Source: Candidatus Woesebacteria bacterium
GTDB lineage: Bacteria > Patescibacteriota > Microgenomatia > UBA8517
NCBI GenBank assembly: GCA_016432525.1
Contig: CP066693.1
Coordinates: forward strand, 224,815-288,814
Direction of reading: 5' to 3'
DNA length: 64,000 nt
This document shows positions 1,606 to 64,000 of the stretch, piece after piece. The translations under genes were made by a program, and so were the position numbers. The notes beneath the pieces were generated by a model. The model searched no databases, was not told where the DNA came from, and saw nothing but the letters and a program-made list of their open reading frames with translations. Position 1 is the first letter of the stretch, and each line of letters starts with the position of its first letter.

Positions 1606-1607
1606 AT

Positions 1608-2393: not shown

Positions 2394-2396
2394 ATT

Positions 2397-2684: not shown

Positions 2685-2694
2685 TTAAACTTTA

Positions 2695-4004: not shown

Positions 4005-4006
4005 CC

Positions 4007-4687: not shown

Positions 4688-4689
4688 TG

Positions 4690-5553: not shown

Positions 5554-5576
5554 TTTATAATGTAATCATTTCAAGC

Positions 5577-7947: not shown

Positions 7948-9032
7948 TTTGGTTCTCCTATATCTATATATATTGCCGATATAAAACCTGTAGAACCGTC
8001 TGTTAATTTAATTCCAAACCATCCTTTATGTTCCGAAATAAGTTCGAAGCTGTCACCATCACGAGCTTCACCGATCTTATCTGATTGGATTGATGGCTTT
8101 TGACGAATATTCACACTCATCACTCCATCTGTAATTTTAACTATTACTCTCGGTTTTGGAGAATCTGTAGGTTTAACAGATTCTGAAAGAACCTGTGAAG
8201 AAATTGGAGTGGGTGAAACTGTAGAATTTTTGTGTACAGAAGCATCAATGTTTCTTATTCCCAAAAAAAGAAGAACAAAGAAAACCCCCGTAGCTGTAAA
8301 TAGTTCAGCCAATCTAGATAAAGGTTTTAAACCTAATCTTTTAAGGTATCTCCTTTCAAGTTGCTTTTGATCATTAGATTCTACTTTTTCCTCGTTGGCT
8401 TTGTATTTTTCAACTAATTCTTCGTAGCCACCAGCAGAAGTTATTTTTGGTTTGATCCAAGCAGTTTCCCTTAACCCCAAATATTCAGGATAAGACGAAT
8501 AACCATCCTTACTATGAAGCTTGCAAGTAAACTCCAAAAGTTTACTCTCCGTTATCTGGCTAGACTTATAAGGTCCAGCGAACAAAGAACCTTTACGCTG
8601 GTATTTTTTATTAAAGTACATTGAATATCTAGTGCAAAGTGATCTCATAAAATTTTCGATAGACTTTTTTATAGTTTGATTCAAAATTAAGTGGAACTCC
8701 GAAGGTGTCAAATAATAGGCAATAAGCTCAACTTTGTCGAAATAATTTTTTGGCAAATGAGGTACGCCTTTATACATACGACCTTTCACTTTAAAAACTT
8801 TTTTGTTAATCTGGAGGTCGAGTGGAGAAGACAAATAGTCTCTCAAATAACCGATAAAGATTTCATAATCTTTTGAATCTTTAAAAATTATCTTATCCTC
8901 AATACCATTATTGTGAATATGAAAATATACGTTTTCTTTGCTTTTACTTGAAAGGTCCTTGGCAAGCATAATTAAAGTTAACTTGTAAGAAGAATCCTTG
9001 CAAGTATGTATCTTAGAGTATAACTGTAACAA
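7944..9032 (-). CDS. IS200-like (HUH/Y1 transposase-like) domain protein fused to a transmembrane segment and a C-terminal SH3b domain
   Basis: N-terminal ~190 aa match the REP-associated/IS200-like pattern: YFHIHNNGIEDKIIFKDSKDYEIFIGYL, AYYLTPSEFHLIL, FMRSLCTRYSMYFNKKYQRKGSLFAGPYK. The HUH motif is degenerate (E-F-H). Then comes the hydrophobic helix GVFFVLLFLGI, and C-terminal VNIRQKPS...GWFGIKLTDGSTGFISAIYI is SH3b-like. Confidence 0.6.
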   Translation of the reverse strand: MLQLYSKIHTCKDSSYKLTLIMLAKDLSSKSKENVYFHIHNNGIEDKIIFKDSKDYEIFIGYLRDYLSSPLDLQINKKVFKVKGRMYKGVPHLPKNYFDKVELIAYYLTPSEFHLILNQTIKKSIENFMRSLCTRYSMYFNKKYQRKGSLFAGPYKSSQITESKLLEFTCKLHSKDGYSSYPEYLGLRETAWIKPKITSAGGYEELVEKYKANEEKVESNDQKQLERRYLKRLGLKPLSRLAELFTATGVFFVLLFLGIRNIDASVHKNSTVSPTPISSQVLSESVKPTDSPKPRVIVKITDGVMSVNIRQKPSIQSDKIGEARDGDSFELISEHKGWFGIKLTDGSTGFISAIYIDIGEPN

Positions 9033-12901: not shown

Positions 12902-12977
12902 TTCGTTTACTCTCCTTATGGGTATTATTTAAAATCTTTTCATAATACACTAAAAACAATCATATTTCTAGCTTAAG

Positions 12978-13049
12978 AGGCCAGAGCGGGAATCGAACCC
13001 GCGCATAGTGGTTTTGCAGACCACGGCGTTTCCACTTCGCCATCTGGCC
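12978..13049 (-). tRNA. tRNA-Cys (anticodon GCA)
   Basis: Reverse complement is GGCCAGAUGGCGAAGUGGAAACGCCGUGGUCUGCAAAACCACUAUGCGCGGGUUCGAUUCCCGCUCUGGCCU. It has a 7-bp acceptor stem, a GG-containing D-loop, anticodon loop CUGCAAA with U33 and A37, and a T-arm GCGGG-UUCGAUU-CCCGC. No encoded CCA. Confidence 0.85.
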
Positions 13050-28630: not shown

Positions 28631-29503
28631 TTAACACAGTGGTAGTGGTGGCCGAAAACTCATATTATTTCCTAAAAAATCTGTTTTAACAAAACATCCA
28701 GGGTAACTAATTTCTTTACCTCCAAAACTTTTCTTAAAATGACTAAATCCAAGCCATGATCCATTCGGAAACCTTTTGTCATAAATTCCCTCAAAATCAA
28801 ATATCTTTGCCTTATTTTTCTTGCTCCACAAAATTCCTTCCCAAACTATTTTGTATTGGTAAAGTTTCTTTCTTCCGTCTTTATTAGTAAACGCTTGCCA
28901 ATAGTAAGAAACATCTCCTGAGTTTAAAAATATCGCCCCCGAGTCACTTTTTTCTGAAGTTACAAACAGAGAATTCTTTCTAAAAGCTTTCTTCAGCTCA
29001 ATAAGATGTTGAAGTGGGGGAACATACCTTTTGATTCCAACCGCTCCTTTCCAATAATTTCTAAAATCATTTAAATCTCCTAATTCATACTTTCTAATAT
29101 TCAATCTATTATTTTTTTTAATCGCACTTCTGCAATCTTTTTCAAAATCTGTAAAAATTTTTTCTTTTCTTTGCTTTAAATCAATTTGCAATGTCTTCGT
29201 TGGAAGATATGGAGATTTACTTAACTTAAATCCATTTGCTTTGCATTCTGCGCTTTGAGTTTCATTTATAGGTTCAATAATAATCTGAAAAACTCTGTGT
29301 TTTTGGGCAATCTTTCCAATTTTTTGAAAATCCATATTTTGACCAGGTCTCTGAATTTTCAAAACACTTCCAATTAAAGGAAATTTCTTTACAAAAACAG
29401 AAACTTTGTCAATTTTTTCTACATTCCACCCAATTCTTGAAAGATATCTTGCGTATTCTTTGCTTTGTCTAATATCCTGCATTTCAAAAACTTGGGGAAA
29501 CAA
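28631..29503 (-). CDS. FemAB-family (aminoacyl-tRNA-dependent peptidoglycan aminoacyltransferase-like) protein, short paralog
   Basis: 290 aa. CRSAIKKNNRLNIRKYE (K.R.NIRK block), GDVSYYWQAF and the aromatic-rich C-terminus are typical of Fem/MurM proteins. Confidence 0.55.
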   Translation of the reverse strand: MFPQVFEMQDIRQSKEYARYLSRIGWNVEKIDKVSVFVKKFPLIGSVLKIQRPGQNMDFQKIGKIAQKHRVFQIIIEPINETQSAECKANGFKLSKSPYLPTKTLQIDLKQRKEKIFTDFEKDCRSAIKKNNRLNIRKYELGDLNDFRNYWKGAVGIKRYVPPLQHLIELKKAFRKNSLFVTSEKSDSGAIFLNSGDVSYYWQAFTNKDGRKKLYQYKIVWEGILWSKKNKAKIFDFEGIYDKRFPNGSWLGFSHFKKSFGGKEISYPGCFVKTDFLGNNMSFRPPLPLC

Positions 29504-30413
29504 ACTTACTTTTAGCTCTTAATATTGCCCACCTGAATTTTTCAAGAACCTTATAAATTTGGTAAGAATTGTTATCAATAACCAAATCCCATGTTCCCAG
29601 AAACTCAACAACTTTAGGATTAAACCCTTCTTTAAATTTAGTAAATCCCTTATTTTCTTCTCGTCCCCACAAATCAAAAATTTGCAACTTTAATTTTTGT
29701 CCCATTTTTATGGCCTCCCACATCATCAAATTATTTGGCATTACGTTTTTATATTTTTCTGTGCTTGCCCCGTACGGATAATACAAAAACCCATTATAAG
29801 CAAAGAGTATCCATGTGGTTATAATCTCTCCTTTATATTTAGCAACTAAAAGATGAGCAATTCCTGCTTCGCGAAGATATTTCCACATCAATCTATGATA
29901 TTTTTCGTTATGTGCATAAAACCCCTGTCTTTTAGAAGTCTCGGAAGTTAATTCTAAATATTTTTCAAAAGCTTTATCTGAATTATCCTCTATGACTTTA
30001 ACTCCTTTCCTTTCAGCCAGTCGAATATTGTAACGGGTTTTTGGCTTAAAACTTTTTAAAAGCTCCTCCTCTGATTTTGTCAAATCAATCCAAAAAGTAG
30101 TTGAAGTAAAAATTGTTTTTCCTCTTGCAGCTCCTGAATCCTTCAGTGTTTTAATTAATTTTTCTTCTTTTAAAACATTTGGTTCTAGTTTTATAAAAAT
30201 TAAATCCTTTTCTTCGCCAATTTTTTTAAGATCCAAAAGCATTTTAGAGGTGGGTATTGTTCCTTTTTCAAAAATTCCAATTTTTTTATTCAAAACCGGC
30301 ACTTTGTGAATAGTTAAATATCCATATTTGGTTTCCAAAACCTCATTTCCCCATTTTTTACGAAATTCTGCCCAAGAAGGGGACTGCAAAGGGTGTGTAT
30401 TTGGATTTTTCAT
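29484..30413 (-). CDS. FemAB-family peptidoglycan branch aminoacyltransferase
   Basis: 309 aa. SPSWAEF..WG, KPKTRYNIRLAERKGV, LFAYNGFLYYPYGAS and LMWEAIKMGQ blocks match FemX/FemA/MurM. Confidence 0.7.
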   Translation of the reverse strand: MKNPNTHPLQSPSWAEFRKKWGNEVLETKYGYLTIHKVPVLNKKIGIFEKGTIPTSKMLLDLKKIGEEKDLIFIKLEPNVLKEEKLIKTLKDSGAARGKTIFTSTTFWIDLTKSEEELLKSFKPKTRYNIRLAERKGVKVIEDNSDKAFEKYLELTSETSKRQGFYAHNEKYHRLMWKYLREAGIAHLLVAKYKGEIITTWILFAYNGFLYYPYGASTEKYKNVMPNNLMMWEAIKMGQKLKLQIFDLWGREENKGFTKFKEGFNPKVVEFLGTWDLVIDNNSYQIYKVLEKFRWAILRAKSKFVSPSF

Positions 30414-30452: not shown

Positions 30453-32276
30453 TTAATCAAACTCCCATCTTTTTTGTCTTACATAATTTGCGTTTGATTT
30501 CAAAAGTTTTTCTGGAATGTCAATAACAAACCTGCTCACTGGATTTGAAATATTTTGCCCAAAATAAAGCCGCCTCTCGGCATAAGTCATATATAAAAGC
30601 TCTTTAGCTCTCGTAATCCCAACATAGGCAAGTCTTCTTTCTTCCTCAATTTCACTCGCTTCCATCAAAGATCTTGAATGAGGAAAAATCCCTTCTTCCA
30701 TTCCAACCATGAATACAACAGGAAACTCAAGGCCTTTTGCAGCATGAAGTGTCATAAGTGTGACATTATCTTCTTTCCCTTGCTCTTTCGAAGCCTTGGC
30801 GAATAAGGGTTCTGCTTCAACCAAAGCTACATTTTCCAAAAATTCATAGATTTTGGGAAATTCAATTGCAACCGACCTAAATTCTTTTATATTTTCAAGC
30901 TTTTGAAAATTTTCCTCAGTTTCTCGTTTATATTTTGATAAATAATCAGTCTCTTTTATAACCAAATCAAAAAGACCTAAAGTAGTATATTTCGCAATTT
31001 CCAAATTCTCTTGTAATTTTTTAAATTTTTCAAATCTTTTTACTCCCAATTTCTGAATTCTTTTTAAAGAAACACTATCTTTTGGATTAACTAAAACTCT
31101 CAAATACGACAAAATATCTTTAATTTCAGCCCTTTCATAAAATCTAACCCCTCCAACTAAAACATAAGGAATGCCAGAGTGGAGTAGTGCCTCTTCAATA
31201 ACTCTTGATTGTGCATTTGTCCTATATAAAATCGCAAAATCATTAAACTTAAATCCTAAGTCAAGAAGTAGTTTAATCTCAGAAACAATAAAGGAAGCCT
31301 CATCCATCCCGTTCCTAGCCCCATAAATATTAATTTTATCTCCCTCACTTTTTTCAGTCCACAAGGATAATATAGGGTGGGTTTTGTTATGCATAATTAC
31401 AGCATTGGCTGCTAAAAGTATATTCTTAGTTGACCGGTAATTTTGCTCCAAATTAACTATTTTTATATCAGGATAGTTCGAAATTAAATTATTAATATTT
31501 CTAAAATCAGCACCTCGCCATGAGTAAATTGACTGTGAAGCATCTCCAACTGCAGTTAGCGAATTATTTTTACCAACTAAAAGTTTTGTCAGTTGATACT
31601 GAATTTTATTAGTATCCTGCCATTCATCAACTAAAATATGAGAGAATTTGTTTTGCCATTTTCCTAGAACTTCAGGATTTTCTTTTAGAATATTGTAAGT
31701 TTTTATCAAAAGATCATCAAAATCCAGTGCTCCAATTTCTTTCAATTTCTTCTCGTATAAATTATAAATTTTAAATAAAGTCTCCTGAAAATCCCCTTGA
31801 ACTATTTCTGCGTATTGAAGTGGAGTTAGCATCTGATTCTTCAAATCTCCCAATTGATTTTGAATCAAACCCATTTGATATGATTCCTCAGGCAGATCAA
31901 GATCATCAATAATTTCTTTAATTAAACTTTTCTGATCAGAGTCATCATAAATAATGAAATTAGGCAAAATTCCTATAATTTGGCCTTCAATTCTCAAAAA
32001 CTTCACACAAAACGAGTGATATGTAGAAGCCAACGGAGGATCGTTTCCAATAAGTTTATAAATTCGTTCTTTCATTTCGTTTGCCGCTTTATTTGTAAAA
32101 GTCAAAAGAAGAATTTTGTGAGGATTTATATTTTTATTCAAAATAAAATACGCAGCTCTATATACCAATACTCGTGTTTTTCCAGATCCAGCTCCAGCCA
32201 AAACCAACAAAAATTGGCTCTCGTTCATAACAGCCTCTTTTTGTTGAGCGTTCAATTGGTCTAAAATAAGTGTCAC
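30453..32276 (-). CDS. UvrD/PcrA/Rep-type ATP-dependent DNA helicase
   Basis: 607 aa. LNAQQKEAV, AGAGSGKT, VDEWQDTN, LEQNYRST, MTLHAAKGLEFPVV, YVGITRAK. Confidence 0.85.
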   Translation of the reverse strand: MTLILDQLNAQQKEAVMNESQFLLVLAGAGSGKTRVLVYRAAYFILNKNINPHKILLLTFTNKAANEMKERIYKLIGNDPPLASTYHSFCVKFLRIEGQIIGILPNFIIYDDSDQKSLIKEIIDDLDLPEESYQMGLIQNQLGDLKNQMLTPLQYAEIVQGDFQETLFKIYNLYEKKLKEIGALDFDDLLIKTYNILKENPEVLGKWQNKFSHILVDEWQDTNKIQYQLTKLLVGKNNSLTAVGDASQSIYSWRGADFRNINNLISNYPDIKIVNLEQNYRSTKNILLAANAVIMHNKTHPILSLWTEKSEGDKINIYGARNGMDEASFIVSEIKLLLDLGFKFNDFAILYRTNAQSRVIEEALLHSGIPYVLVGGVRFYERAEIKDILSYLRVLVNPKDSVSLKRIQKLGVKRFEKFKKLQENLEIAKYTTLGLFDLVIKETDYLSKYKRETEENFQKLENIKEFRSVAIEFPKIYEFLENVALVEAEPLFAKASKEQGKEDNVTLMTLHAAKGLEFPVVFMVGMEEGIFPHSRSLMEASEIEEERRLAYVGITRAKELLYMTYAERRLYFGQNISNPVSRFVIDIPEKLLKSNANYVRQKRWEFD

Positions 32277-33352
32277 AAGCTATTCTAATGCAAAAGCTAA
32301 CAAAAAATAAAATTCTATTCCTTAAAATTAAAAGAAAAGCTTTAAAACATCTCTGGTTGGCTAGGTTTTTTCTATTGGCAATAATTTTTGTGATAATCTC
32401 AACTCCTGTTATATTTTTTGTATCCTGGTTTAATAATTCGCTAATAAAAAATTTCACCAATCTCGCCGAAGATTTTTTGTTTGCACCTCAATATAAACTT
32501 TCGAACACAGATGGAAGAGTAAATATTCTAGTTTTGGGAAAAGGTGGCATAGGTCACGACGCACCAGATCTGACAGATACAATGATTCTTGTTTCGGTTT
32601 CTCTAAAATCTCCAAAAATAGTTTCAATTTCAATTCCAAGAGATATTTGGGTGTCCGCTCTTCGAGCAAAAATAAATAGCGCATATTATTGGGGAAATCA
32701 AAAAGAAAATCAAGGCCTAACATTAGCCAAAGCAACCGTTGAAAATATAGTTTCAGTTCCAATTCATTACGCTGTAGTGATAGATTTTGGCGGTTTTACA
32801 AAAGTAATAGACACAATAGGGGGGGTTGACGTAAATATTAAATATTCTTTTACAGATAATCAATTTCCAATTGCAGGTAAAGAAGATGATACTTGTAATG
32901 GAGATTTAACTTATAAATGCAGATATGAAACAATCCATTTTGATCAAGGTATAACCCACATGGACGGGGAAACTGCTCTAAAATTTGTCCGATCTCGTCA
33001 TGCAGTTGGAGATCAAGGAACAGATTTTGCTCGTGATGAAAGACAGCAAGAGGTTATCTTGGCTATAAAAACCAAGATTCTATCCAAAGAAGTTTTGTTC
33101 TCGCCTCAAAAAGTTATAGATTTATTAAATTTAAGTAAAAACTATATTCAAACAGACATTAAAACAGAATCTATAGCTGTTTTAGCGCGATATGTCTTAA
33201 ACGGCAAAACCAATATCAAGACATTTGTTTTTCCTCAAGAATTTTTAATAAATCCTCCAATCTCTTCGACATACGATAATCAATATGTTTTTATTCCCAA
33301 TGGAGGAAACTGGTCAAAAGTTCAAGAATGGATAAAATCAATTCTTCCATAA
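32270..33352 (+). CDS. LytR-CpsA-Psr (LCP) family cell-envelope polymer transferase
   Basis: N-terminal TM helix. GRVNILVLGKGG...DLTDTMILVS...ISIPRDIWV and the RSRH...D.R motif. The true start is probably the ATG at 32288, which avoids overlapping the divergent helicase start. Confidence 0.8.
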   Translation: MSQAILMQKLTKNKILFLKIKRKALKHLWLARFFLLAIIFVIISTPVIFFVSWFNNSLIKNFTNLAEDFLFAPQYKLSNTDGRVNILVLGKGGIGHDAPDLTDTMILVSVSLKSPKIVSISIPRDIWVSALRAKINSAYYWGNQKENQGLTLAKATVENIVSVPIHYAVVIDFGGFTKVIDTIGGVDVNIKYSFTDNQFPIAGKEDDTCNGDLTYKCRYETIHFDQGITHMDGETALKFVRSRHAVGDQGTDFARDERQQEVILAIKTKILSKEVLFSPQKVIDLLNLSKNYIQTDIKTESIAVLARYVLNGKTNIKTFVFPQEFLINPPISSTYDNQYVFIPNGGNWSKVQEWIKSILP

Positions 33353-33355
33353 AGT

Positions 33356-34558
33356 TTAAAACTCCACCCATCCAAATTTATTAATCCAAATTACTCCCCA
33401 TAAATTAACAATCACTCCAATCAAAAGCAAAATCCAGTGATATTTTTTAAGTCCTGTCCTTGCAACTCCTTTTATGGTTAAAAATGTTAAAAACGGATAT
33501 AAATCAACAGCAAATCTGTATCCAAATTGAGCCCAACCAGTTCCTCCATGCATAAAAACAATGAATAAAATCGCAAACGAAGTAATACTTGCAATTTTAA
33601 CAACATTTTCTTTAATGTTTGCCATTAAACTAAAGACAAAAGCAGGAGTAGTAATCCATATAGAAAGTCCCCACCAGGATGGTTCTATAAAAGGTGTCCT
33701 ATCTAAAATTTTAGGAAACGACCAAAAAGCAGCTTTGATATTTGATGGAATATAATAAAAGCTCATTACTCCGTGCATAAACCAAGGCGTTTGTGTTTCA
33801 TGTAAAACTCGAGGAAGCAAAAAATAAGCCTTATCCCAAAATACTCCGAAACGAATAAAATTATAAAATGAGTCAAGACCAAAACTCAAAACTAAAGGTA
33901 AAAAAAATAAAATTATATTTTTAAAATTTCTTAAATCACGATTTAATAAAAATATAAAAAAGGGGAGAGAGATAATTGTATGTACTCTTGAAAGATATGA
34001 AATTCCAATACATAAAGAGACAAACCAAACTGATTTTTTGTATAAAGCTGCCCAGATAGCTACAAATAAAAAAAAGGCAGCTGTTATTTGTCCCAAATAC
34101 CAGCTTGATCCAACAGATCCCATATACCAAAGAATTGATCCTAAAGAGATTAAAATTGAGCTCCAAATTGCAATGCGCAAATCTCGCTTAATCTTTAAAG
34201 ATATGTAAAAAGTTAAAATTGGTATTGCTGCAGTCAAAATATGAGCTAAAATTTGTTGCTGAAAAGAGATACCAAAAACTAAAATAAATGGAATTAATAC
34301 TAAAGAAGGCCCAGGAGAATAGGGAACAAAAAATTTTCCACTTTTCCCTGGTATTAACTCAGAAAGCCATGGCGGATTTTCAGTTAAATAATATTTTCCA
34401 TGGATAAAAGCGTTTGTTAGTCGGGTAAAATAATCATAAGGTGTAGCGCCGGAAGAAGACAAAAAATAAACCATGAAAAAAAACAAAAAGGCCAGAACTA
34501 TTTTCATAGTACTTGTTCTCGGCTTTATTTTGAGAATTTTATTATTTAATTTTGGCAC
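33356..34558 (-). CDS. Polytopic membrane protein, possible GT-C-like glycosyltransferase or polymerase (hypothetical)
   Basis: 400 aa with more than ten TM helices. No catalytic motif identified with confidence. Confidence 0.4.
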   Translation of the reverse strand: MPKLNNKILKIKPRTSTMKIVLAFLFFFMVYFLSSSGATPYDYFTRLTNAFIHGKYYLTENPPWLSELIPGKSGKFFVPYSPGPSLVLIPFILVFGISFQQQILAHILTAAIPILTFYISLKIKRDLRIAIWSSILISLGSILWYMGSVGSSWYLGQITAAFFLFVAIWAALYKKSVWFVSLCIGISYLSRVHTIISLPFFIFLLNRDLRNFKNIILFFLPLVLSFGLDSFYNFIRFGVFWDKAYFLLPRVLHETQTPWFMHGVMSFYYIPSNIKAAFWSFPKILDRTPFIEPSWWGLSIWITTPAFVFSLMANIKENVVKIASITSFAILFIVFMHGGTGWAQFGYRFAVDLYPFLTFLTIKGVARTGLKKYHWILLLIGVIVNLWGVIWINKFGWVEF

Positions 34559-36845
34559 TTTAGATCTTGATTATCATACATTTTTGGCCTGGAGCAACAT
34601 ATTAGTTCATAACGGTTTTAATAATTTTTATAACGGTTGGTCTGATTATCTTCCTGGCTATTTATATATTTTATATTTTTTAGGAAAAATAAAAACCATC
34701 GTTCCTTTACCAGAACTTTTTATTTACAAACTACCAGCAATTTTGGCAGATTTGGCAACTGGATTTCTAATTTATAAAATTGTCAAAAAACTAAAATCAG
34801 AAAAACTAGCCCTAATATCTTCAATTTTATATATCGCAAACCCCGCAATTATTGCAAATTCAACTCTTTGGGGACAAGTTGATTCTTTAACAACTCTATT
34901 TACTCTCGCATCTATTAGTTTATTTCCACAAAATTGGCTTGCATCAAGCCTTATTTTAAGTGTCGTAGCAAGCATTAAACCTCAGGGAGCATTAGCAGCA
35001 CCAATTATTTTATTTATGATGATAAAAAGAAAATGGAGCCTAAAAAGTATATCAATCTATATCATAATTTCATTAATTTTCTTTATCTTGTTATTCGTAC
35101 CTTTTAATAATACAAATAATCTAATAGGCTTTATAATTAACCGCTTAAATGTAACTACCGGACAATATTCATACACTAGTATAAATGCATTTAATTTTTG
35201 GGGACTTTTTGGATTTTGGCAACAAGACAGCCTCGTAAAGGCGGGGATAGGATACAGTTTGATATTCTTTTTCTACATCATTTTTGCAGTAAAATTATGG
35301 GATAAAAAGGGAAGTGAATACATTCTGACTTCTATAATTTTCACGACAAGTTTCTTATTTTTCACGAGAATGCACGAAAGACATTTACTTCCAGCTCTTG
35401 CGCCATTATTAATAACAGCATCAATTTATCCGGCAACCTTTATCACTTACTGCTTACTCTCCCTAGGATACATCGCTAATTTATATTACTCATTTGTGTG
35501 GATAACTCAGTCTTTCAAATCAATCTTTTCAGATCTTATTATAAAAGCGTTTACAATCGTCAATCTGTCGTCATTAATTTTTATAATTAAACCAATTTTT
35601 TTTCAAAATAAAACTGAATTTAAAAAAGATCTCCCCGACCCTCTCCCCTCTTTAAAATTAAATAAAAATCAATCAAAAAAATTTTTATTTCTGATACTCC
35701 TATTTGCATTCCTAACCAGAACTATTTCGCTCTCAAATCCAACTCATGAATATTTTGATGAAGTTTATCACGCATTTACAGCCAGAAGGCTCATTCATGG
35801 CGATATTAAAGTCTGGGAATGGTGGAACCCCTCCCCCGAAGGCTTTGCTTATGAATGGACCCACCCCCCAGTTGCAAAACTTGTGATGTGGACAGGGATG
35901 AAGATTCTTGGTGAAAACTCCTTTGGCTGGAGATTTCCGGCAGCAGTAGTCGGAACCTTAACAGTTTACTTAGTTTACAAACTAACTTTTGAAATATTTA
36001 AAGATGAGGCATTAGGGCTACTTGCTGCAGCTACATTCGCTCTCGAAGGTCTTCCTCTTGTTTTATCAAGAATCGGAATGAATGATATTTATTTTTTATT
36101 TTTCACTCTTCTTTCTCTTTTCTTGTTTATTAAAGATAAAAATTTTCTTTCAAGTGTAAGCCTCGGTTTAGCAGCAGCTTCCAAATGGAGTACATTATGG
36201 GCAATACCTATTTTATTTGTAGCCTTTTTCGTTCTCAAAAAAAAGCTAAAAGTAAGCCATATTTTCTTTTTTATAATTCCACTAATTGTTTATTTGGCAA
36301 CTTACATACCCATGTTTACATCAGGCCACACTCTCGACACATTTATTGGAATGCAAAAACAAATGTGGTGGTATCATACAAATCTTAAAGCAACTCACCC
36401 ATACACTTCTCTTTGGTACACTTGGCCATTTTTAATTCGCCCAATTTGGCTTTATACCAGTGGTGAAATAGGAGGATATATTTCAAATATTTACGCTCAG
36501 GGAAATCCAGTAGTTTTTTGGTTTGGAGTTATTTCAATTGCTACAACAATTTTCTATACTATCAAAACTAAAAGTAAAAAATTAGGATTTATCGTTTTCA
36601 GCTATCTTGTGTTTTTTGTTCCTTGGGCAGCATCCCCTCGTATTATGTTCCTTTACCACTATCTCCCCTCAATTCCATTTATGTGTATGGCAATAGCCTA
36701 TGTATTAAGAAAAAATCCCAAATATATTCCTATATTTTTTACTTTTGCCCTTATTGTATTTATTTATTTATACCCACACTTTACAGGTATAAAAGTTCCA
36801 GTTTGGCTCGATAATTCCTATTATTGGTTTGACAGTTGGAAGTAA
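34473..36845 (+). CDS. Large GT-C fold glycosyltransferase with PMT-like domain (two membrane modules)
   Basis: 790 aa polytopic. The second module carries HEYFDEVYHAFTA...WTHPP, like protein O-mannosyltransferase (PMT/GT39) proteins. The first module is ArnT-like. Confidence 0.6.
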   Translation: MKKNKKARTIFIVLVLGFILRILLFNFGTLDLDYHTFLAWSNILVHNGFNNFYNGWSDYLPGYLYILYFLGKIKTIVPLPELFIYKLPAILADLATGFLIYKIVKKLKSEKLALISSILYIANPAIIANSTLWGQVDSLTTLFTLASISLFPQNWLASSLILSVVASIKPQGALAAPIILFMMIKRKWSLKSISIYIIISLIFFILLFVPFNNTNNLIGFIINRLNVTTGQYSYTSINAFNFWGLFGFWQQDSLVKAGIGYSLIFFFYIIFAVKLWDKKGSEYILTSIIFTTSFLFFTRMHERHLLPALAPLLITASIYPATFITYCLLSLGYIANLYYSFVWITQSFKSIFSDLIIKAFTIVNLSSLIFIIKPIFFQNKTEFKKDLPDPLPSLKLNKNQSKKFLFLILLFAFLTRTISLSNPTHEYFDEVYHAFTARRLIHGDIKVWEWWNPSPEGFAYEWTHPPVAKLVMWTGMKILGENSFGWRFPAAVVGTLTVYLVYKLTFEIFKDEALGLLAAATFALEGLPLVLSRIGMNDIYFLFFTLLSLFLFIKDKNFLSSVSLGLAAASKWSTLWAIPILFVAFFVLKKKLKVSHIFFFIIPLIVYLATYIPMFTSGHTLDTFIGMQKQMWWYHTNLKATHPYTSLWYTWPFLIRPIWLYTSGEIGGYISNIYAQGNPVVFWFGVISIATTIFYTIKTKSKKLGFIVFSYLVFFVPWAASPRIMFLYHYLPSIPFMCMAIAYVLRKNPKYIPIFFTFALIVFIYLYPHFTGIKVPVWLDNSYYWFDSWK

Positions 36846-36846
36846 A

Positions 36847-37251
36847 TTATAAAATCAAGAGTAAGGCTGATATTACAAAGAAAACTGAAGCCCCAATTCC
36901 CATCCAAGTTGGCCAATCAATTCCTGCCTGCGGAAGAGTTGTAACTTTTGAAGTGGGTACAGGTGTTGCTCTAATAATTGGTGTACTTGTAGATTTAATT
37001 GTGGCGATTGGTGTAGCAGAAGGGCTTGCAGTTGCAGTGTTAAATTCAGATCCTCCAACAGTTAAACTGGATGGTGTTGGATTAGGAGATTCAGTCGGTG
37101 GTAAGGTAGCTGCTGGAACATTCTCTGGTGCATTTAAAGAAACGCTCTGGTTTCTGAGTTGGTACAGTCTATAAGCTGTAAAAATTGAAACAGCCCCTAA
37201 AACAACAATTGCAATGACAATTAAAGCAGTAGTTTTCATCTCAACCTTCAA
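36847..37251 (-). CDS. Small Pro/Thr-rich envelope protein ending in LPQAG plus hydrophobic tail
   Basis: 134 aa. N-terminal TM/signal anchor, a PT-rich middle, and C-terminal TTLPQAGIDWPTWMGIGASVFFVISALLLIL. Confidence 0.5.
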   Translation of the reverse strand: MKVEMKTTALIVIAIVVLGAVSIFTAYRLYQLRNQSVSLNAPENVPAATLPPTESPNPTPSSLTVGGSEFNTATASPSATPIATIKSTSTPIIRATPVPTSKVTTLPQAGIDWPTWMGIGASVFFVISALLLIL

Positions 37252-38626
37252 TCTTCTTCCAAGCGATTACGCTTCCTACAAAAAGACCTAAAGCTATAGA
37301 AAGAAGCGCGATCGTTGCTCCACCCTCGCCTGCTGTGGGAAGCGCCGAAGGAGTAGAAGTAGGCTTAAGTGTTGCCTTTGGAGTAGGAGTATTAGTTGCA
37401 GCCACCGTAGGAGTTGGAGCAACTGTTGCCTTAGGACTCGCAGAAGGTGTAGGTGTTGGAGTGGGAGTGGGTGTTGTAGGTTTAAGAGTAGCCGATGGTG
37501 TTGAAACAAAAGATGGCTCGTTAGCTGCCTGAACTATAAATGATCGAGTGATACTTCTAAGTATTCCAGCTGCGTCTGTATAAGAAATAGTTATTGTGTG
37601 CGAGCCAGGCTCCAAATTAGAAGGTGGACTCCATTTCCAAACTCCAGTTGAAGGTACAGTTATTTTTGTGCTTTGTGTAGTAGATTGAACTGTTATGTTA
37701 ATGATCTGCCCAGCTGTTGCTGATCCAAAAAATTCGGGTTTAACACTTTTTACCACTTCTCCATTAGTAACACTATCAATAGTCACCTTTTTTGAAACAG
37801 TTGCGGATTGTTTAATTCCTCCAATATTAAATCCAGCTGAAGATGTAGCATTTGTGTCTTGCGGTAAATTTACTAAAGCCGATGGAGAATTAGTAAGATC
37901 CGTCCCTTGTTGGTTTCTAAAATCATAATTGTTTCCTAAAACTATTGTAGGAGTCGGGTTAGCAGCATTTGCGTAAATTTGTGCTGTGGAAACACCCTTT
38001 GATCCACCTTGAACAAACACTGAAAGCAAACTAGTTCCAGAAACTGTTGAGAAAGACGACAAATCGGTTACTCTTGCAGAAGAAAGCGGCAAAACCCACT
38101 TTCCGCTTAGATTTGTTTTAGTTGAAAGGATACTTATATTATCACCACTTAAATAGACAATGGTGTCAGCTGCGGGACCTCCATTGGAAAGAGTCACTGT
38201 TCCAGTAGCAACATAATTATTAGTTGATCCATTAATTGAAGCTCCAGTTTTAATTTGCCAAGCAATTCCAGAATTGTCATACAAAATAGAATTTGAATTG
38301 ATTTTGAAATAATACATAGTTGAAGGTTTTAGCTGTTGCAAGGTCACATAATGAACAGTTGAAGCACTTGCATTATCGGGTAATGCAGTCGCTCCAGGAT
38401 CTTTTGATTCTCCAAAAGAAACAAATCCACTTGTCGCAGTATCAGTCACCCAAGATACATTAAATGAACTATCAGATACGTTAGTAATTTTAATATCACG
38501 AGGTGCAGTAGACGGATTAGCGGAAGAATTAAATATTTGACGATTTCTAATAAGTAACACTGAAGAAATAAAACCAACAACTAAAAAAATAATGCCTAAA
38601 AGCGTTGGGATTTTTATTTTTTTCAT
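37241..38626 (-). CDS. Surface protein with FN3-like domain, Ser/Thr-rich beta region, PT linker and C-terminal LPTAG-TM-KK sorting-signal-like motif
   Basis: 461 aa. N-terminal signal/anchor. PRDIKITNVSDSSFNVSWVTD...YYFKINS is FN3-like. (PT)n linker, then ...SALPTAGEGGATIALLSIALGLFVGSVIAWKKIEG. Confidence 0.6.
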   Translation of the reverse strand: MKKIKIPTLLGIIFLVVGFISSVLLIRNRQIFNSSANPSTAPRDIKITNVSDSSFNVSWVTDTATSGFVSFGESKDPGATALPDNASASTVHYVTLQQLKPSTMYYFKINSNSILYDNSGIAWQIKTGASINGSTNNYVATGTVTLSNGGPAADTIVYLSGDNISILSTKTNLSGKWVLPLSSARVTDLSSFSTVSGTSLLSVFVQGGSKGVSTAQIYANAANPTPTIVLGNNYDFRNQQGTDLTNSPSALVNLPQDTNATSSAGFNIGGIKQSATVSKKVTIDSVTNGEVVKSVKPEFFGSATAGQIINITVQSTTQSTKITVPSTGVWKWSPPSNLEPGSHTITISYTDAAGILRSITRSFIVQAANEPSFVSTPSATLKPTTPTPTPTPTPSASPKATVAPTPTVAATNTPTPKATLKPTSTPSALPTAGEGGATIALLSIALGLFVGSVIAWKKIEG

Positions 38627-38964
38627 CTAAGTTTGGCTCCTTCTGATGCAACAGCCGACCCACTTGCCGGACTACTAGTACCCACTGGTGTGGCAGTAGG
38701 AGCGATAGCTGGCGTTGCTGTCGGTGTCGCTACTTTAATATTACCAATTTCCTCATCAGAAATGTATACCCTTTGTTCTAATTTGCCCAAAACAGTTGTA
38801 TCAAGTGTTGGATCAATTGGTGATAGAATTTCTGCTGGAACCGAAGGAGGAGGTTTTGTCATAAATATTTTTATCACTTCAAAGGCAATCCACACAACAA
38901 TGGTAATCAAAGTAAAAAAACTTGTTTTTACAATTCCTGGAATTTTTCTTTTAGTAGCACTCAT
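38623..38964 (-). CDS. Membrane-anchored Pro/Thr-rich protein (pseudopilin-like N-terminus?)
   Basis: 113 aa. KRKIPGIVKTSFFTLITIVVWIAFE is a hydrophobic N-terminus with FTLI, then a PT/A-rich tail. Confidence 0.4.
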   Translation of the reverse strand: MSATKRKIPGIVKTSFFTLITIVVWIAFEVIKIFMTKPPPSVPAEILSPIDPTLDTTVLGKLEQRVYISDEEIGNIKVATPTATPAIAPTATPVGTSSPASGSAVASEGAKLR

Positions 38965-39617
38965 TTTTTAATTCCTTCAAAATATATCGCTAATCCATTA
39001 ATAGTTAAAACTATCTGCTTAGTTCCATTGGTAGATTTTATTATGTCCGAGCTAAACCCAATCGAAGTTGGAAAAAGCGGCCTTCTCATGTTTTCAATAT
39101 CAGACAAATATGAAAATAATTGATCATAGTTTCCAGTAATATTTAAAGAAACAGGAAAACCCAAAGCTCCATTCTCAAGACTTTGATCAGGTTTTGTGCT
39201 AACTCCAAGTATTTGTGTTGGTCCAAAACTCTCAGAAATAGGCGAAAGATTATCCTTATTCAAAATTCCTTCAAACTGTCTTTGATAGCTAGAAGGATCT
39301 GGGTTGTCAGGTATAGAAGTCGCCAAAATCTGAATTCTATCTTTTTCCTTTTGATAAAGATCAGAAGCTGCAGTCAAATTTTTAATTTTTTGTTCCATTA
39401 TAGAAATCGTCTCCTCTTTGCCTTTATTTTCTTGAATTAATTGTGCAATGGTTCTAGCAGTTGGTCTAATTGCAAAAAGAAAAAATATTATGATTGTAAA
39501 AATCGAAAGCAAAATTTCAATAAATGCTTTGATATCAGATCTTTCGCGATACAAAACCAATATCCCCAAAAATTGCTTCTGATATTTTAAGTAATCTCTC
39601 TGCCAAGTTGCTGCCAT
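38961..39617 (-). CDS. pilO: Type IV pilus assembly protein PilO-like
   Basis: 218 aa. N-terminal TM, coiled coil, and C-terminal ITGNYDQLFSYLSDIENMRRPL matching the PilO core (G.Y..L..FL..L..L.R...I). Confidence 0.6.
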   Translation of the reverse strand: MAATWQRDYLKYQKQFLGILVLYRERSDIKAFIEILLSIFTIIIFFLFAIRPTARTIAQLIQENKGKEETISIMEQKIKNLTAASDLYQKEKDRIQILATSIPDNPDPSSYQRQFEGILNKDNLSPISESFGPTQILGVSTKPDQSLENGALGFPVSLNITGNYDQLFSYLSDIENMRRPLFPTSIGFSSDIIKSTNGTKQIVLTINGLAIYFEGIKK

Positions 39618-39619
39618 TT

Positions 39620-40165
39620 TTATACTTTAGTTAGTTTAATAGTAAACGTTACAAACGGATTATCTTCACTCATATCAAATCCAGTCAAAGTTATATTTGA
39701 AAACAAATTTGTAGCCTTAAGGTTTGAGATCAATTGAACAATCGATTGTTCAGAAAAACTATCTGCCTTTAAACTTATACCATCCTTGTCTGATGTTAAA
39801 GTGTCCAAAACAATATCATTAGGAAGAGCAGAAGTAATCTTAGAAAAAACTGAAGAAGTCAAATTTTTACTAGAAGTAATTGATGAAAATATAGAAATTT
39901 TTGCTTGTATGTTTTTAAACTCATTTTCAAATTTAGAAAAAGACGCAATTACAGCTTTTTTTGATTGGATCTGATCTGTTAAATCGTTCGACCTGGCGTC
40001 CAAAAAAAATCTTGAAATAAAAGCCAAAATCACAACAAATTCAGTAACAATAACAATAATTCTAAAGCTAGAAAGTACCCAATTTAAAATTCTTGCTCTT
40101 ACATCTGACTCTTCCTGTAAATTTGGAAGTAAATTTATACTGTTATTTTTCTCTCGGGCAGCCAC
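39620..40165 (-). CDS. pilN: Type IV pilus assembly protein PilN-like
   Basis: 181 aa. INLLP N-terminal motif, single TM, and periplasmic domain. Confidence 0.65.
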   Translation of the reverse strand: MAAREKNNSINLLPNLQEESDVRARILNWVLSSFRIIVIVTEFVVILAFISRFFLDARSNDLTDQIQSKKAVIASFSKFENEFKNIQAKISIFSSITSSKNLTSSVFSKITSALPNDIVLDTLTSDKDGISLKADSFSEQSIVQLISNLKATNLFSNITLTGFDMSEDNPFVTFTIKLTKV

Positions 40166-40199: not shown

Positions 40200-40490
40200 T
40201 TACTTCTTCAAAACTTTTTTGGATATCTTTTTTGGAGTTTTTTCTTTCTTCATACTTTTCAAAGCTACTGCAGAAATTCTTGCTTTAATTCTTGAAGCCT
40301 TATTTTTGTGAATCAATTTTTTCTTTGCAGCTCGATCAGCCAAAGAATAAACATTATCTATATCCTTTTCGGCATGACTTTTTAGAGCTTTCCTAATTGC
40401 ATAAGAAAGACGCGATGTAATAATCTTATTGACAACGGCCTTTTTCTCGGATGAACGAAGGGCTCTTTTTGCTGTTTTTGTAACTGGCAT
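40200..40490 (-). CDS. rpsT: 30S ribosomal protein S20
   Basis: 96 aa, basic; MPVTKTAKRALRSSEKK... Confidence 0.8.
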   Translation of the reverse strand: MPVTKTAKRALRSSEKKAVVNKIITSRLSYAIRKALKSHAEKDIDNVYSLADRAAKKKLIHKNKASRIKARISAVALKSMKKEKTPKKISKKVLKK

Positions 40491-61682: not shown

Positions 61683-61976
61683 TTATGGAAAAATATCCTC
61701 CTAATCACCACTCCTCAATGACCTTGAAAGAAGCAATTGAATTAGGAGAATATAATCCTCAATTTCAAACGATAAGGGAGCTCTTGAAAATAGAAGACAC
61801 CATCTTTTGGTTCAATGGGCAGAAATAAACAACATGTTTGATTTTAGTAAAAAACCAGACCTACAGGAAGCTTTAAAAAATATTGAAAAAGATAGGAAAA
61901 AAATCTATTTTGAATTCTCCAAGGTCGCATAACTTCTCCTAGCCTCTTTTAATGATACTGCTATAATGAATCTACA

Positions 61977-64000
61977 ATGGGTAAAAAGAAAAAAAAGAAT
62001 CGAGCAAAGAATAAAAAAGCTTTTAGATTAAAGTTAAAGCCACATACAGTTCATTCTGTTGCTCAACTTACTTTCTTCGCCATGGCTGCTCTCATTTCCA
62101 TTTCTTTCGCAAGACGTGGTCTAATTCTAATCGGAATAAATGATTTTCTTTTTGATTTCTTTGGCTGGGCAACAATTTTTTTACCATTTATATTTTTATC
62201 TTTCGGTTTTTACGTTTCAAAATTCAAAAACCCACTAAGTCAGCCAAACGTTGTTTTAGGAGGTCTAATTTTTTCAATTTCAATGACAGCTCTCACAAAA
62301 TCAGGCAAAATTGGACTTCAAATTTCTGACTTTTTCATAACTTTATTAACCTCAACCGGAGCAACAGTTCTTTTTTTAGCAATGTTATTTATCGGTATTG
62401 TTATTCTTTTCAATACTTCCGTAGATCAACTCATGAAATCTTTTGTTTCGCTTCTCAAATACACTAAAAAATTTCTAGTCGCAGAAAAAGAAACAGGTTT
62501 AGGCAAAAATATAAAACTAGACAGAAAAGAATTAAAAGTGATAGGAGGGAATTCCAATTTTAAGATAAATTCTCCTCCAAAGCTCGATGCGAACAAAAAG
62601 CCAGTTGAAGAAAAACTAGAAGCAAAGCTCGTAAGTAATATGCCCGGTGAAGAACAGGTTTGGAAATACCCTCCAGTGAATCTTTTGGTAAGTGAAGAAA
62701 CTCACAAAGCCGATCGTGGAGACATTAAAGGGAATGCAGCAGTTATAGAGCAAACCCTCGAATCATTTGGAATAACAGCACGAGTTGTCGAAGTAAACAT
62801 GGGCCCAGCAGTTACTCGCTACGCTCTAGAAGTAGCCCTTGGCACTAAGCTCTCAAAAATTACAGCTCTCGAGCGAGATCTTGCTCTTGCCCTTGCAGCT
62901 CCAGGCGGCTCAATCCGTGTAGAAGCCCCAATTCCTGGAAGATCTTTAGTTGGAATTGAGCTTCCAAATAAGAGCCCAGAATTTGTTCCATTAAGAAAAA
63001 TGATGAGCTCGGATATAATGAGAGAATCCACTTCCAAGTTAACTGTAGCCTTGGGTCTTGATGTTGCAGGTGAGCCAGTTGTTGCAAATATTTCTCGTAT
63101 GCCTCATGTTTTAATAGCTGGCCAAACAGGATCAGGAAAATCAGTCTGTATCAATACTTTTCTAGCCTCACTTCTCTTTCGCGCCTCACCTCAAGAAGTA
63201 AAACTTATTCTAGTTGATCCTAAAAGAGTAGAGCTTACAGGCTATAACGATATTCCTCATCTTTTAACTCCAGTAATAGTTGAACCCGAAAAAGTAATCT
63301 CTGCTCTTCGTTGGGTCCTCTCAGAAATGGAAAGGCGCTACAAGCTCTTCCAGCAAGCAGGAGTAAGAAATCTTGAAAGTTACAATGAAATGTCAGGATT
63401 TCAAGCTCTTCCTTATATTGTTGTAGTTATAGATGAACTTGCAGATATTATGCTTTTCTCTCCAGTCGAAGTTGAGGATTCAATTACTCGAATAGCTCAA
63501 ATGAGCCGCGCCACAGGCATACACATGGTTCTTGCAACCCAAAGACCATCCGTTGATGTTATAACAGGTCTTATTAAAGCAAACATTCCAGCTCGTATTG
63601 CATTTGCAGTAAGCTCTCAAGTTGATTCTCGCGTTATTTTGGATGGCAAAGGAGCTGAAAAATTATTAGGCCGTGGAGATATGCTTTATTTAACTCCAGA
63701 ACAGGCAAAGCCAATGCGTATTCAAGGCGCTTTTATTTCAGATAAAGAAATTTCATCTCTAGTCTCATTCATTAAAAACCAGGGCATTGCTCCTCAATAC
63801 ACCGAAGAGGTAACTGCAATGTCCCGACCAGGAGCTGTTAAAATTGCAGGAATTGAAGGGGACACAGACGATCTTTTCAAAGAAGCAGTAAAAGTAGTGG
63901 TTCAATACGATAAGGCATCAGCATCTCTTTTACAAAGGCGTCTTTCAATAGGTTACGCGCGGGCAGCACGAATAATTGATCAACTAGAAGCAGCCGGCGT
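61977..64000 (+). CDS. ftsK: DNA translocase FtsK/SpoIIIE (5'-partial in window; continues beyond the end)
   Basis: N-terminal TM helices, a linker, then the motor: LIAGQTGSGKSV is Walker A, VVVIDELAD is Walker B, and LATQRPS, through the start of the gamma-domain (ASASLLQRRLSIGYARAARIIDQLE). There is no in-window stop, which is why the ORF track omits it. Confidence 0.85.
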   Translation, partial: MGKKKKKNRAKNKKAFRLKLKPHTVHSVAQLTFFAMAALISISFARRGLILIGINDFLFDFFGWATIFLPFIFLSFGFYVSKFKNPLSQPNVVLGGLIFSISMTALTKSGKIGLQISDFFITLLTSTGATVLFLAMLFIGIVILFNTSVDQLMKSFVSLLKYTKKFLVAEKETGLGKNIKLDRKELKVIGGNSNFKINSPPKLDANKKPVEEKLEAKLVSNMPGEEQVWKYPPVNLLVSEETHKADRGDIKGNAAVIEQTLESFGITARVVEVNMGPAVTRYALEVALGTKLSKITALERDLALALAAPGGSIRVEAPIPGRSLVGIELPNKSPEFVPLRKMMSSDIMRESTSKLTVALGLDVAGEPVVANISRMPHVLIAGQTGSGKSVCINTFLASLLFRASPQEVKLILVDPKRVELTGYNDIPHLLTPVIVEPEKVISALRWVLSEMERRYKLFQQAGVRNLESYNEMSGFQALPYIVVVIDELADIMLFSPVEVEDSITRIAQMSRATGIHMVLATQRPSVDVITGLIKANIPARIAFAVSSQVDSRVILDGKGAEKLLGRGDMLYLTPEQAKPMRIQGAFISDKEISSLVSFIKNQGIAPQYTEEVTAMSRPGAVKIAGIEGDTDDLFKEAVKVVVQYDKASASLLQRRLSIGYARAARIIDQLEAAG

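Follow-up and report, generated by a model that had tools for sequence, protein, structure and literature searches.

We report a conserved gene block in a 64,000-nucleotide stretch of DNA (hereafter the window) from a Candidatus Woesebacteria bacterium (Patescibacteriota, Microgenomatia; GenBank assembly GCA_016432525.1, contig CP066693.1, positions 224,815 to 288,814 of the forward strand; G+C content ~34%). In this block, the genes for the type IV pilus (T4P) proteins PilN and PilO are followed by genes for three envelope proteins, here termed P3, P4, and P5. Gene order across related genomes supports the five genes as one conserved unit. Our sequence comparisons further support that the C termini of P4 and P5 represent a genuine, conserved, and modular tail resembling a sorting signal, with the sortase LPXTG anchor as its closest known model. 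With moderate confidence, we favor the view that P3, P4, and P5 are lineage-specific envelope partners of PilN and PilO. T4P alignment proteins and LPXTG-type signals are both well known, and sortases have already been noted in the candidate phyla radiation (CPR). An earlier prediction, made from the sequence of the window alone (the original prediction), had called the arrangement undescribed. In the searchable literature, we found neither a PilN/PilO operon extended by proteins with sorting signals nor a description of the tail variant LPx[A/S]G-xx(W/L)PT.

The gene block is conserved in related genomes

Five minus-strand open reading frames (ORFs) encoding PilN, PilO, P3, P4, and P5 were confirmed in the window (Table 1). 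The original prediction had described them as five overlapping genes downstream of rpsT; the genes and their position hold, but only two of the four junctions overlap. The PilO/P3 and P3/P4 junctions each share a 4-nt ATGA overlap, whereas PilN/PilO and P4/P5 are separated by gaps of 1-2 nt. The gene rpsT is the first of the co-directional string and ends 34 nt upstream of pilN. A scan of the block for promoters and terminators returned nothing beyond shuffled expectation.

We assessed the gene order in the contexts of three P4 homologs (loci L003-L005), in 19 loci from GTDB genomes, and in five long metagenome loci, using hidden Markov models (HMMs) of the window proteins and of orthologous sequences. 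The first 22 of these loci come from NCBI, Logan, and GTDB genomes. Without exception, the ~26 independent loci of the Woesebacteria type show PilN-PilO-P3-P4 in this order, with P4 sequence identity down to ~36%. Where called genes were listed, rpsT is found upstream of the block in every locus, and this flank also carries a divergent murJ-hrcA-grpE-dnaK-dnaJ cluster. The other flank contains genes for PMT-type glycosyltransferases, a LytR-CpsA-Psr (LCP) transferase, UvrD, and FemAB proteins. The neighbors kept across loci are wall-biogenesis genes, namely those for MurJ, two FemAB-like proteins, LCP, and PMT.

Two side observations concern the locus sample itself. L023 and L024 (CAZGEA010000005.1 and CAZGEA010000003.1), both from one metagenome-assembled genome, have identical ORF coordinates and HMM scores over the entire block, reflecting either a duplication or assembly redundancy. 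The title 'uncultured Gammaproteobacteria bacterium' of several GTDB records with a block of the Woesebacteria type seems to be a mislabelling.

PilN and PilO are related to T4P alignment proteins

PilN matches the Pfam family PF05137 with residues 106-178 (38.3 bits; cut-off, 22.8), and a profile of its orthologs matches Myxococcus xanthus PilN in the T4P machine structure 3jc8 (E = 2e-6). Its INLLP motif is found at residues 10-14, and 21 of 22 loci have [IVL]NLLP, the exception having INLIP. Canonical PilN proteins use INLLP to bind PilM in the T4P alignment complex. Its conservation argues that the PilN encoded in the block works with PilM. PilO is encoded directly after pilN in all loci. 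The window protein reaches 17.1 bits with Pfam PF04350, under the cut-off of 22, but a profile built from four orthologs matches M. xanthus PilO in 3jc8 over positions 44-197 (E = 9e-8), and the ortholog in L005 has a Pfam PilO match. The PilN-like protein with its INLLP motif and the PilO-like protein of the original prediction are thus borne out.

It had also been noted that the window contains no PilM, PilB, or PilC, and none was detected when virtually every ORF of 110 aa or more was compared with Pfam. In the complete Microgenomates genome Ch65, a single T4P locus is reported to encode pilins, PilD, PilB, PilT, PilC, and PilM, and PilN and PilO are not listed (PMC7143001). This would fit a separate location of the PilN and PilO genes, but it is weak evidence because the missing mention may reflect annotation.

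P3, P4, and P5 are envelope proteins with conserved segments

P3 follows PilO in every locus and has no match in Pfam, NCBIfam, or PDB. Behind a basic N terminus, it contains a transmembrane (TM) segment, within which two threonines and a tryptophan are invariant across orthologs. The conserved external peptide has the ortholog consensus VPxEILxPLxPTLD. The Pro/Thr/Ala-rich tail of P3 is dispensable, because orthologs span 66-148 aa. A pseudopilin-like N terminus had been proposed for this protein on the basis of the string FTLI. The string is present, P3 reading ...KTSFFTLITIVVW, but there is no Gly-1 ahead of the Phe and no Glu+5, as required of class III signal peptides, and P3 is thus not a pseudopilin.

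The 461-residue P4 had been predicted to contain FN3 domains, in agreement with matches to fn3, Pur_ac_phosph_N, and Big_13 above the Pfam cut-offs. An AlphaFold2 model calculated with 40 homologs (mean predicted local distance difference test score, pLDDT, of 80) comprises an N-terminal helix (residues 6-32), three β-sandwiches (43-126, 139-235, and 290-365), disordered linkers (246-276 and 369-433), and a confident C-terminal helix (435-460). This architecture is common to 260 homologs. The linker formed by residues 366-433 consists of Pro, Thr, Ser, and Ala to 76%, compared with 24% in DnaK. In the N-terminal helix, residues P7, T8, L15, G18, and G22 are invariant or nearly so among homologs, and such conservation is unusual for a cleavable leader. 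P4 was also considered as a PilP/PilQ-like fold; we return to this below. The adhesive role raised in the original prediction is conjecture.

P5 had been read as a Pro/Thr-rich protein of 134 aa ending in LPQAG and a hydrophobic stretch. The tail is present, but the longer reading (36847-37251) needs a TTG start, and a protein of 130 aa starting from an ATG codon is more likely. Of 18 loci that could be assessed, 16 have a member of the P5 family downstream of P4, with lengths of 130-619 aa. These proteins combine an N-terminal module, LAGxAIFTAxRLYQLRQxxVAPxxP, which is near-invariant in 80 cluster representatives, with a variable Pro/Thr-rich or domain-bearing middle and the tail LPx[A/S]G-xx(W/L/T)PT, followed by a hydrophobic stretch ending in LLAL or LLAI. 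The window P5 is a minimal member of the family, its middle being 62% Pro, Thr, Ser, and Ala and devoid of a folded domain. Larger proteins in the same slot are one of 619 aa with four SdrD_B/SpaA/Cna_B repeats (L023, 12060-13919) and one of 326 aa with a DUF11 repeat (L015, 12480-13460), both having the same terminal modules. SdrD_B, SpaA, Cna_B, and DUF11 domains are typical of sortase substrates. No sortase gene adjoins P5, including none for a class C sortase of the SpaA-type pilus kind.

In most related loci, a further gene, X, is located between P4 and P5. It encodes ~250-560 aa with a Pro/Gln/Asn-rich N terminus (MPDQNNP...) and the conserved C terminus RFTINGxxRPEVTTKKPGTEEFYDEYTIPEGxTxFTIxAQIHHxTLGW. 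X, like P3 and P5, belongs to no family in Pfam or NCBIfam. The window has no X between 37239 and 37241 and has either lost the gene or never had it. Across the tail-bearing proteins, two conserved N-terminal modules, each made up of a TM and a juxtamembrane part, recur, the P5-type module given above and GxxAGVxLV(R/K)QQQxIxEKA. The N-terminal hydrophobic segments of P4 and P5 are far too conserved for ordinary leader peptides, and the modules may represent a specialized export or retention signal, loosely comparable to the YSIRK-type leaders of Gram-positive LPXTG proteins.

As a side observation, a conserved ORF of ~100 aa is found just past P5 (L010:13914-14213, L015:13453-13755, and L019:13168-13470). 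It ends in ...YYPFDKFFP(K/H)SG followed by a hydrophobic and a basic segment, a different Px[S]G plus TM C terminus.

The C-terminal tails form a modular, sorting-signal-like family

The predicted tails, LPTAG in P4 and LPQAG in P5, are both present with a hydrophobic segment, and the P4 tail ends in KKIEG. They are the only two LPxAG-hydrophobic tails among the 241 window ORFs of at least 60 aa. Examination of P4 orthologs revealed the motif in 108 of 120 homologs, in the form [I/V/L/T/Q]-P-x-[S 64, A 25, T 7]-G-x-L-T-P-T preceding a hydrophobic stretch. Pro and Gly are fixed in all 108, and a Lys or Arg is found near the end in 92 of them. An alignment of 18 tails of the P5 type has invariant L, P, and G, an invariant P further downstream, and a nearly invariant T.

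We next looked for the same C-terminal motif in other proteins, by searching a tail profile exhaustively against 1.84 billion representative proteins (E ≤ 1e-3). The search returned 294 clusters; in all 150 listed, with proteins ranging from 29 to 1152 aa, the match ends no more than 4 residues from the C terminus. Among the 143 newly listed sequences, LPxAG occurs 68 times, LPxSG 42 times, [LIV]PxTG 21 times, and LPxVG 7 times, and the variant thus grades into canonical LPXTG. The resulting consensus, [LIV]Px[A/S/T]G-xx(W/L)PT-hydrophobic, is broader than LPxAG. Eighty of the 143 have a P5-type N terminus; the rest include P4-like, X-like, and "SPFEI" N termini with a common TM and AGVxLVRQQQxIxEKA module, proteins with classical signal peptides, mini-proteins of 76-81 aa, and one NHL/fn3 protein of 1152 aa. 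The tail is modular, the same C terminus being found on several unrelated N-terminal families, and some carriers are encoded outside the block, between dnaJ and nusA, beside VKOR, or beside a HAD hydrolase. The tails are not a chance feature, because the motif is conserved in more than 100 orthologs and ~290 clusters. Two outcomes that the original prediction had named as refuting it, orthologs without the motif and a lack of other carriers, were thus examined and not observed.

When the tails were scanned against NCBIfam at E ≤ 10, the only recurrent sorting-related matches were to TIGR01167 (LPXTG_anchor) and to NF053819, a model of an enterococcal sortase-dependent surface protein. NF053819 scores 13-22 bits (cut-off, 47). 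For TIGR01167 (cut-off, 15.9), tails from outside the window reach 12.9-16.5 bits, and only one, of a P4 ortholog with LPETG, passes at 16.5; P5-type tails other than that of the window score 13-14 bits in three of four cases tested. The Pro/Thr spacer upstream of the motif, a classical architecture of Gram-positive wall proteins, also points to a sortase-type character. The proposed resemblance to sortase sorting signals thus stands for a conserved, modular, signal-like tail, but not for a classical basic end in P5-type tails or for a strict LPxAG motif. The tails suggest a connection between the pilus platform and the cell wall but do not prove it.

No sortase was found in the window, in line with the original prediction: there is no Pfam match among the ORFs compared and no TLxTC-type motif in any real ORF. 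In loci whose flanks reach 10 kb, none is found up to that distance from the block either. In the contexts of tail carriers from other families, no sortase is adjacent, the contigs being short or showing none. One complete Microgenomates genome encodes a sortase (PMC7143001), and sortase has been described as near-ubiquitous in Microgenomates (PMC6744442). On the strength of this literature, a sortase would be expected in the Woesebacteria genome from which the window derives.

A possible wall-anchored pilus platform and its alternatives

CPR bacteria (Patescibacteria) depend on T4P for host attachment, motility, and probably DNA uptake. We know of no account of how their pilus machine is held in, and crosses, a Gram-positive-like wall without PilP and PilQ. 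From the identities, synteny, motif conservation, and modularity observed above, we infer the interactions, cleavage, glycosylation, and roles in the following mechanism. PilM and the pilus motor, encoded elsewhere, would dock on the PilN of the block. P3 would be a small adaptor on PilN/PilO, taking the PilP slot by gene order without PilP homology, and, together with the conserved N-terminal helix of P4, it would contact PilN/PilO in the membrane. P4, and P5 where present, would be exported by Sec. Along with X in loci that have it, they would reach through the wall on their Pro/Thr spacers, possibly O-glycosylated by the neighboring PMT and LCP enzymes. A housekeeping sortase would cut LPx[A/S]G between residue 4 and the Gly and link the proteins to peptidoglycan cross-bridges. 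The outcome would be a wall-fixed stalk with its root at the pilus platform, which, in a cell without an outer membrane, could functionally substitute for the wall anchorage that PilP/PilQ (AMIN domain) provides in diderms. Alternatively, the proteins could be a wall-displayed adhesin set made along with the platform.

We judge this mechanism as a whole, in which PilN/PilO and sortase-anchored, possibly glycosylated partners form a monoderm substitute for PilP/PilQ, to be modestly favored. A more specific proposal is a monoderm T4P basal body in Woesebacteria and perhaps other Microgenomates, in which PilN/PilO would be extended by P3 as adaptor, P4 as three-domain stalk, and X and P5 as accessory proteins. 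The conserved N-terminal modules would root these partners in the membrane, and sortase would attach their C termini covalently to peptidoglycan via a new LPx[A/S]G-xx(W/L)PT signal that often has no charged end; this is tentative and rather doubtful in its full form. If true, these would be the first sortase substrates to act as structural parts of the T4P machine, replacing the PilP/PilQ connection to the wall and outer membrane. P3, P4, P5, and X are concrete candidates for the missing envelope part of the pilus machine. The lineage-specific tail variant, with its ~290 carrier clusters, could help to catalog the surface proteins of these uncultured bacteria and to probe which substrates CPR sortases accept.

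Several features of the tails weigh against sortase anchoring. Position 4 is Ala or Ser in ~77% of the tails, with Thr in the minority, and the conserved xx(W/L)PT after the Gly is foreign to classical signals. P5-type tails end in LLLAL or LLLIL without basic, stop-transfer residues. The window tails remain under the LPXTG_anchor cut-off of 15.9 bits, P5 scoring 10.5 bits and P4 having no match, and a sortase motif search of ~45 related loci found none. Given their strong conservation, the N-terminal segments may remain membrane-embedded, in which case the proteins would be anchored at both ends. The tails could be unprocessed C-terminal TM anchors, in proteins held at both ends or by the tail after loss of a leader, with Px[A/S]G-xxPT serving as a helix-capping or packing motif. 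The uncharged ends, the low scores, and the missing local sortase would all fit, as would the confident helix modeled for P4 residues 435-460 and the CPR filament proteins PamC, PamD, and PamR, which are described as held by C-terminal TM helices (bioRxiv 10.64898/2026.03.03.709456). We nevertheless consider this explanation unlikely: a plain anchor needs no invariant L-P-x-x-G and P-T right before the helix in several unrelated families, and the motif grades into LPxTG, IPxTG, and VPxTG in 21 of the 143 listed tails. In addition, some members carry passenger domains of the kind present in sortase substrates, and sortase is reported to be near-ubiquitous in the lineage (PMC6744442). It is far less probable still that the tail is a signal for an enzyme other than sortase, be it exosortase-, archaeosortase-, or rhombosortase-like or of an unknown kind. 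The P4-ortholog consensus I/V-P-D/E/V-S-G does resemble VPDSG-CTERM, which NCBI regards as intermediate between PEP-CTERM and LPXTG, and neither the extra xxWPT nor the missing basic tail is a classical sortase feature. One of the neighboring FemAB-like proteins has PEP-CTERM-associated FemAB as its best NCBIfam match (57 bits; cut-off, 260), followed by FemX at 49 bits; these matches probably reflect generic FemAB similarity. The faint VPDSG-CTERM match, confined to the window P4 tail, lies far under the cut-off, however (8.8 against 22 bits), and no tail matches PEP-CTERM, PGF-CTERM, or GlyGly-CTERM even at E ≤ 10. No exosortase or rhomboid family was found in the window, and the 400-aa polytopic membrane protein that is always encoded next to the block has no conserved Cys. 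To our knowledge, exosortase systems belong to diderm bacteria that produce exopolysaccharide (EPS).

Other observations weigh against a structural tie to the pilus. Among loci long enough to show 10 kb of flank, none has PilM, PilB, or PilC over that distance, so that the link to T4P is carried entirely by the identity of PilN and PilO and by the INLLP motif. A Foldseek comparison of P4 with the PDB yields generic FN3/Ig tandems only and nothing resembling PilP or PilQ, and a PilP/PilQ-like fold was rejected. The argument for glycosylation from the gene neighborhood is circumstantial. P3, P4, and P5 could lie outside the pilus platform, with PilN/PilO, alone or together with the T4P motor, acting as a type II secretion-like aid that takes P4, P5, and X across the wall, or being merely co-transcribed with them in an envelope supercluster (murJ, FemAB, LCP, PMT). 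In every locus, the block sits among wall-biogenesis and housekeeping genes rather than pilus genes; P5 and X are variably present; and some proteins with the same tail have genes at a distance from pilN/pilO. Efficient secretion of the matrix protein BsaC across the wall of Clostridium perfringens is reported to depend on pilM, pilN, pilO, and further T4P genes (bioRxiv 10.1101/2024.11.04.621531). This alternative is compatible with sortase anchoring and is rather unlikely. Against it, the invariant PilN-PilO-P3-P4 order with overlapping stop and start codons in ~26 loci exceeds what loose co-transcription would give, the conserved TM modules in P3 and P4 point to interactions inside the membrane, and the INLLP motif argues for a PilN that works with PilM. 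Should the link be co-transcription only, the result would still define a small family of CPR surface proteins and their motif.

Relation to known systems

We compared the block with known pilus and sorting systems. It resembles the PilM-PilN-PilO-PilP(-PilQ) system of diderms (M. xanthus, 3jc8) in that PilN and PilO are homologous by profile and INLLP is kept. The order PilN, PilO, small protein, and large β-rich envelope protein may parallel pilN-pilO-pilP-pilQ. In contrast to the diderm alignment subcomplex, pilM is not adjacent in our block, and P3 is bitopic, unlike the lipoprotein PilP. P4 is a string of FN3/Ig domains with a sorting-signal-like tail and not a secretin such as PilQ. There is no outer membrane, and any wall attachment would be covalent rather than via AMIN domains.

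Like the sortase A/LPXTG signal (TIGR01167), the tails are laid out as a pentapeptide followed by a hydrophobic stretch, to which P4 adds a basic end, and a wall-spanning Pro/Thr spacer lies upstream. They are likewise modular, some carriers have SdrD_B, SpaA, or Cna_B domains, and LPXTG_anchor is the best model. They differ in the preference for Ala/Ser at position 4 (~77%), the xx(W/L)PT after the Gly, the uncharged P5-type end, and the conserved N-terminal modules. VPDSG-CTERM (TIGR03778) and PEP-CTERM (TIGR02595) also consist of a short motif plus a TM C terminus, and [IV]P[DE]SG of P4 orthologs resembles VPDSG; these systems differ from ours by the sub-threshold score in a single tail, the window without an exosortase-like gene, and the monoderm context. 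The GspA-LcpA-SrtA pathway of Actinomyces oris (PMC6381275), in which LcpA glycosylates the sortase-anchored GspA ahead of its attachment to the wall, is comparable in that LCP and PMT are conserved neighbors of our tail-bearing Pro/Thr-spacer proteins. Glycosylation in our block would, however, be suggested by neighborhood and composition, and the A. oris pathway has no role for PilN/PilO.

Pam pili (bioRxiv 10.64898/2026.03.03.709456) are CPR-specific, are reported from Microgenomatia and Saccharimonadia, and contain PamR, with tandem FnIII domains and a proposed C-terminal TM anchor. The pam operon differs by its chaperone-like PamC/PamD and its donor-strand pilins, and it sits near ATP synthase genes. 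We rejected a Pam pilus as an explanation for the block, given this other operon content and the lack of PilN/PilO; descriptions of Pam mention no sorting motif either. In the BsaC secretion system of C. perfringens (bioRxiv 10.1101/2024.11.04.621531), also a monoderm, PilM, PilN, and PilO affect the passage of surface and matrix proteins, and a sortase gene and LPXTG proteins are found in the neighborhood. Its cargo genes lie outside the pilN/pilO operon, however, BsaA and BsaB of strain 13 have no LPXTG motif, and its link between T4P and cargo is functional, not syntenic.

Neighboring genes and other features of the window

The gene convergent with P5 encodes a PMT-family protein, which matches the NCBIfam protein O-mannosyltransferase model with E = 5e-17, far under the equivalog cut-off. 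A PMT-type gene follows the block in L003-L005, and the enzyme is a candidate for glycosylating the Pro/Thr linkers. An LCP gene is likewise present in L003-L005. The two FemAB-like neighbors are of interest here, since the cross-bridges attacked by sortases are made by FemAB enzymes. The 400-aa polytopic membrane protein is found in 9 loci, with the C terminus WINKFGWV[ES][FY] and many invariant aromatic and Pro residues. It was considered as an exosortase-like enzyme and rejected, having no family match and no conserved Cys. The protein may be an unclassified glycosyltransferase of the GT-C type.

Table 1. Coordinates of the gene block, its modules, and neighboring genes. Positions are those of the window, except for the examples of X, which are given by locus.
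Feature	Position (nt)	Strand	Description	Basis
rpsT	40200..40490	-	Ribosomal protein S20	ORF; Pfam Ribosomal_S20p on identical Logan contigs and L003-L005
PilN	39620..40165	-	181 aa; cytoplasmic N terminus, one TM, external domain	Pfam PF05137
INLLP motif of PilN	40124..40138	-	Residues 10-14 (SINLLP, 9-14)	Read directly
PilO	38961..39617	-	218 aa; bitopic, coiled-coil region	Profile match to PilO of 3jc8
P3	38623..38964	-	113 aa	No known family
P3 TM segment	38860-38922	-	After basic N terminus	
P3 external peptide	38767-38841	-	VPAEILSPIDPTLDxxVLGKLExR, conserved	
P4	37241..38626	-	461 aa	Pfam fn3, Pur_ac_phosph_N, Big_13, all above cut-offs
P4 N-terminal helix	38531-38611	-	Residues 6-32, conserved	
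P4 domains			FN3, residues 41-126; second β-sandwich, 139-235; Big_13 Ig-like, 287-365	
P4 Pro/Thr linker	37343-37531	-	Residues 366-428, disordered	
P4 tail	37244..37342	-	Residues 429-461, LPTAG-EGGATIALLSIALGLFVGSVIAW-KKIEG	
P5	36847..37239	-	130 aa from ATG at 37239	Gene callers' start
P5 N-terminal module	37150-37239	-	TM and juxtamembrane module, VSIFTAYRLYQLRN	
P5 middle	36937-37149	-	Pro/Thr-rich	
P5 tail	36850..36936	-	Residues 102-130, LPQAG-IDWPTWMGIGASVFFVISALLLIL; basic C terminus absent	
X, examples	L006:11352-12551; L008:3951-5393; L009:11354-12514; L012:11338-13032			
PMT	34473..36845	+	PMT-family protein O-mannosyltransferase, convergent with P5	Pfam PMT, PMT_2, PMT_4TMC
Polytopic protein	33356-34558	-	400-aa membrane protein between PMT and LCP	No Pfam/NCBIfam match
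LCP	32270..33352	+	LytR-CpsA-Psr transferase	Pfam, 114.6 bits; TIGR00350, 98.6 bits (cut-off, 62.3)
FemAB-like genes	28631-30413	-	Two adjacent genes	

Elsewhere in the window, a glycan-biosynthesis cluster (928-7078, minus strand) encodes an RmlD-like reductase and a GT2 glycosyltransferase, interleaved with six proteins without a Pfam family. It includes an apparent pair of paralogs (3192-4004 and 5577-6308), both starting ...NLL(I/V)(Y/F)I(N/S)P...DNSLDLGWK. A protein of 362 aa (7944-9032, minus strand) has a C-terminal SH3_3 domain and a sub-threshold match to IS200-like Y1 transposases (20.5 bits; cut-off, 23). An Rfam scan of the 64 kb identified a tRNA-Cys(GCA) only (12977-13049, minus strand). 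A long ORF that runs off the end of the window (61700-64000, plus strand) has FtsK/SpoIIIE-like ends, as judged by eye.

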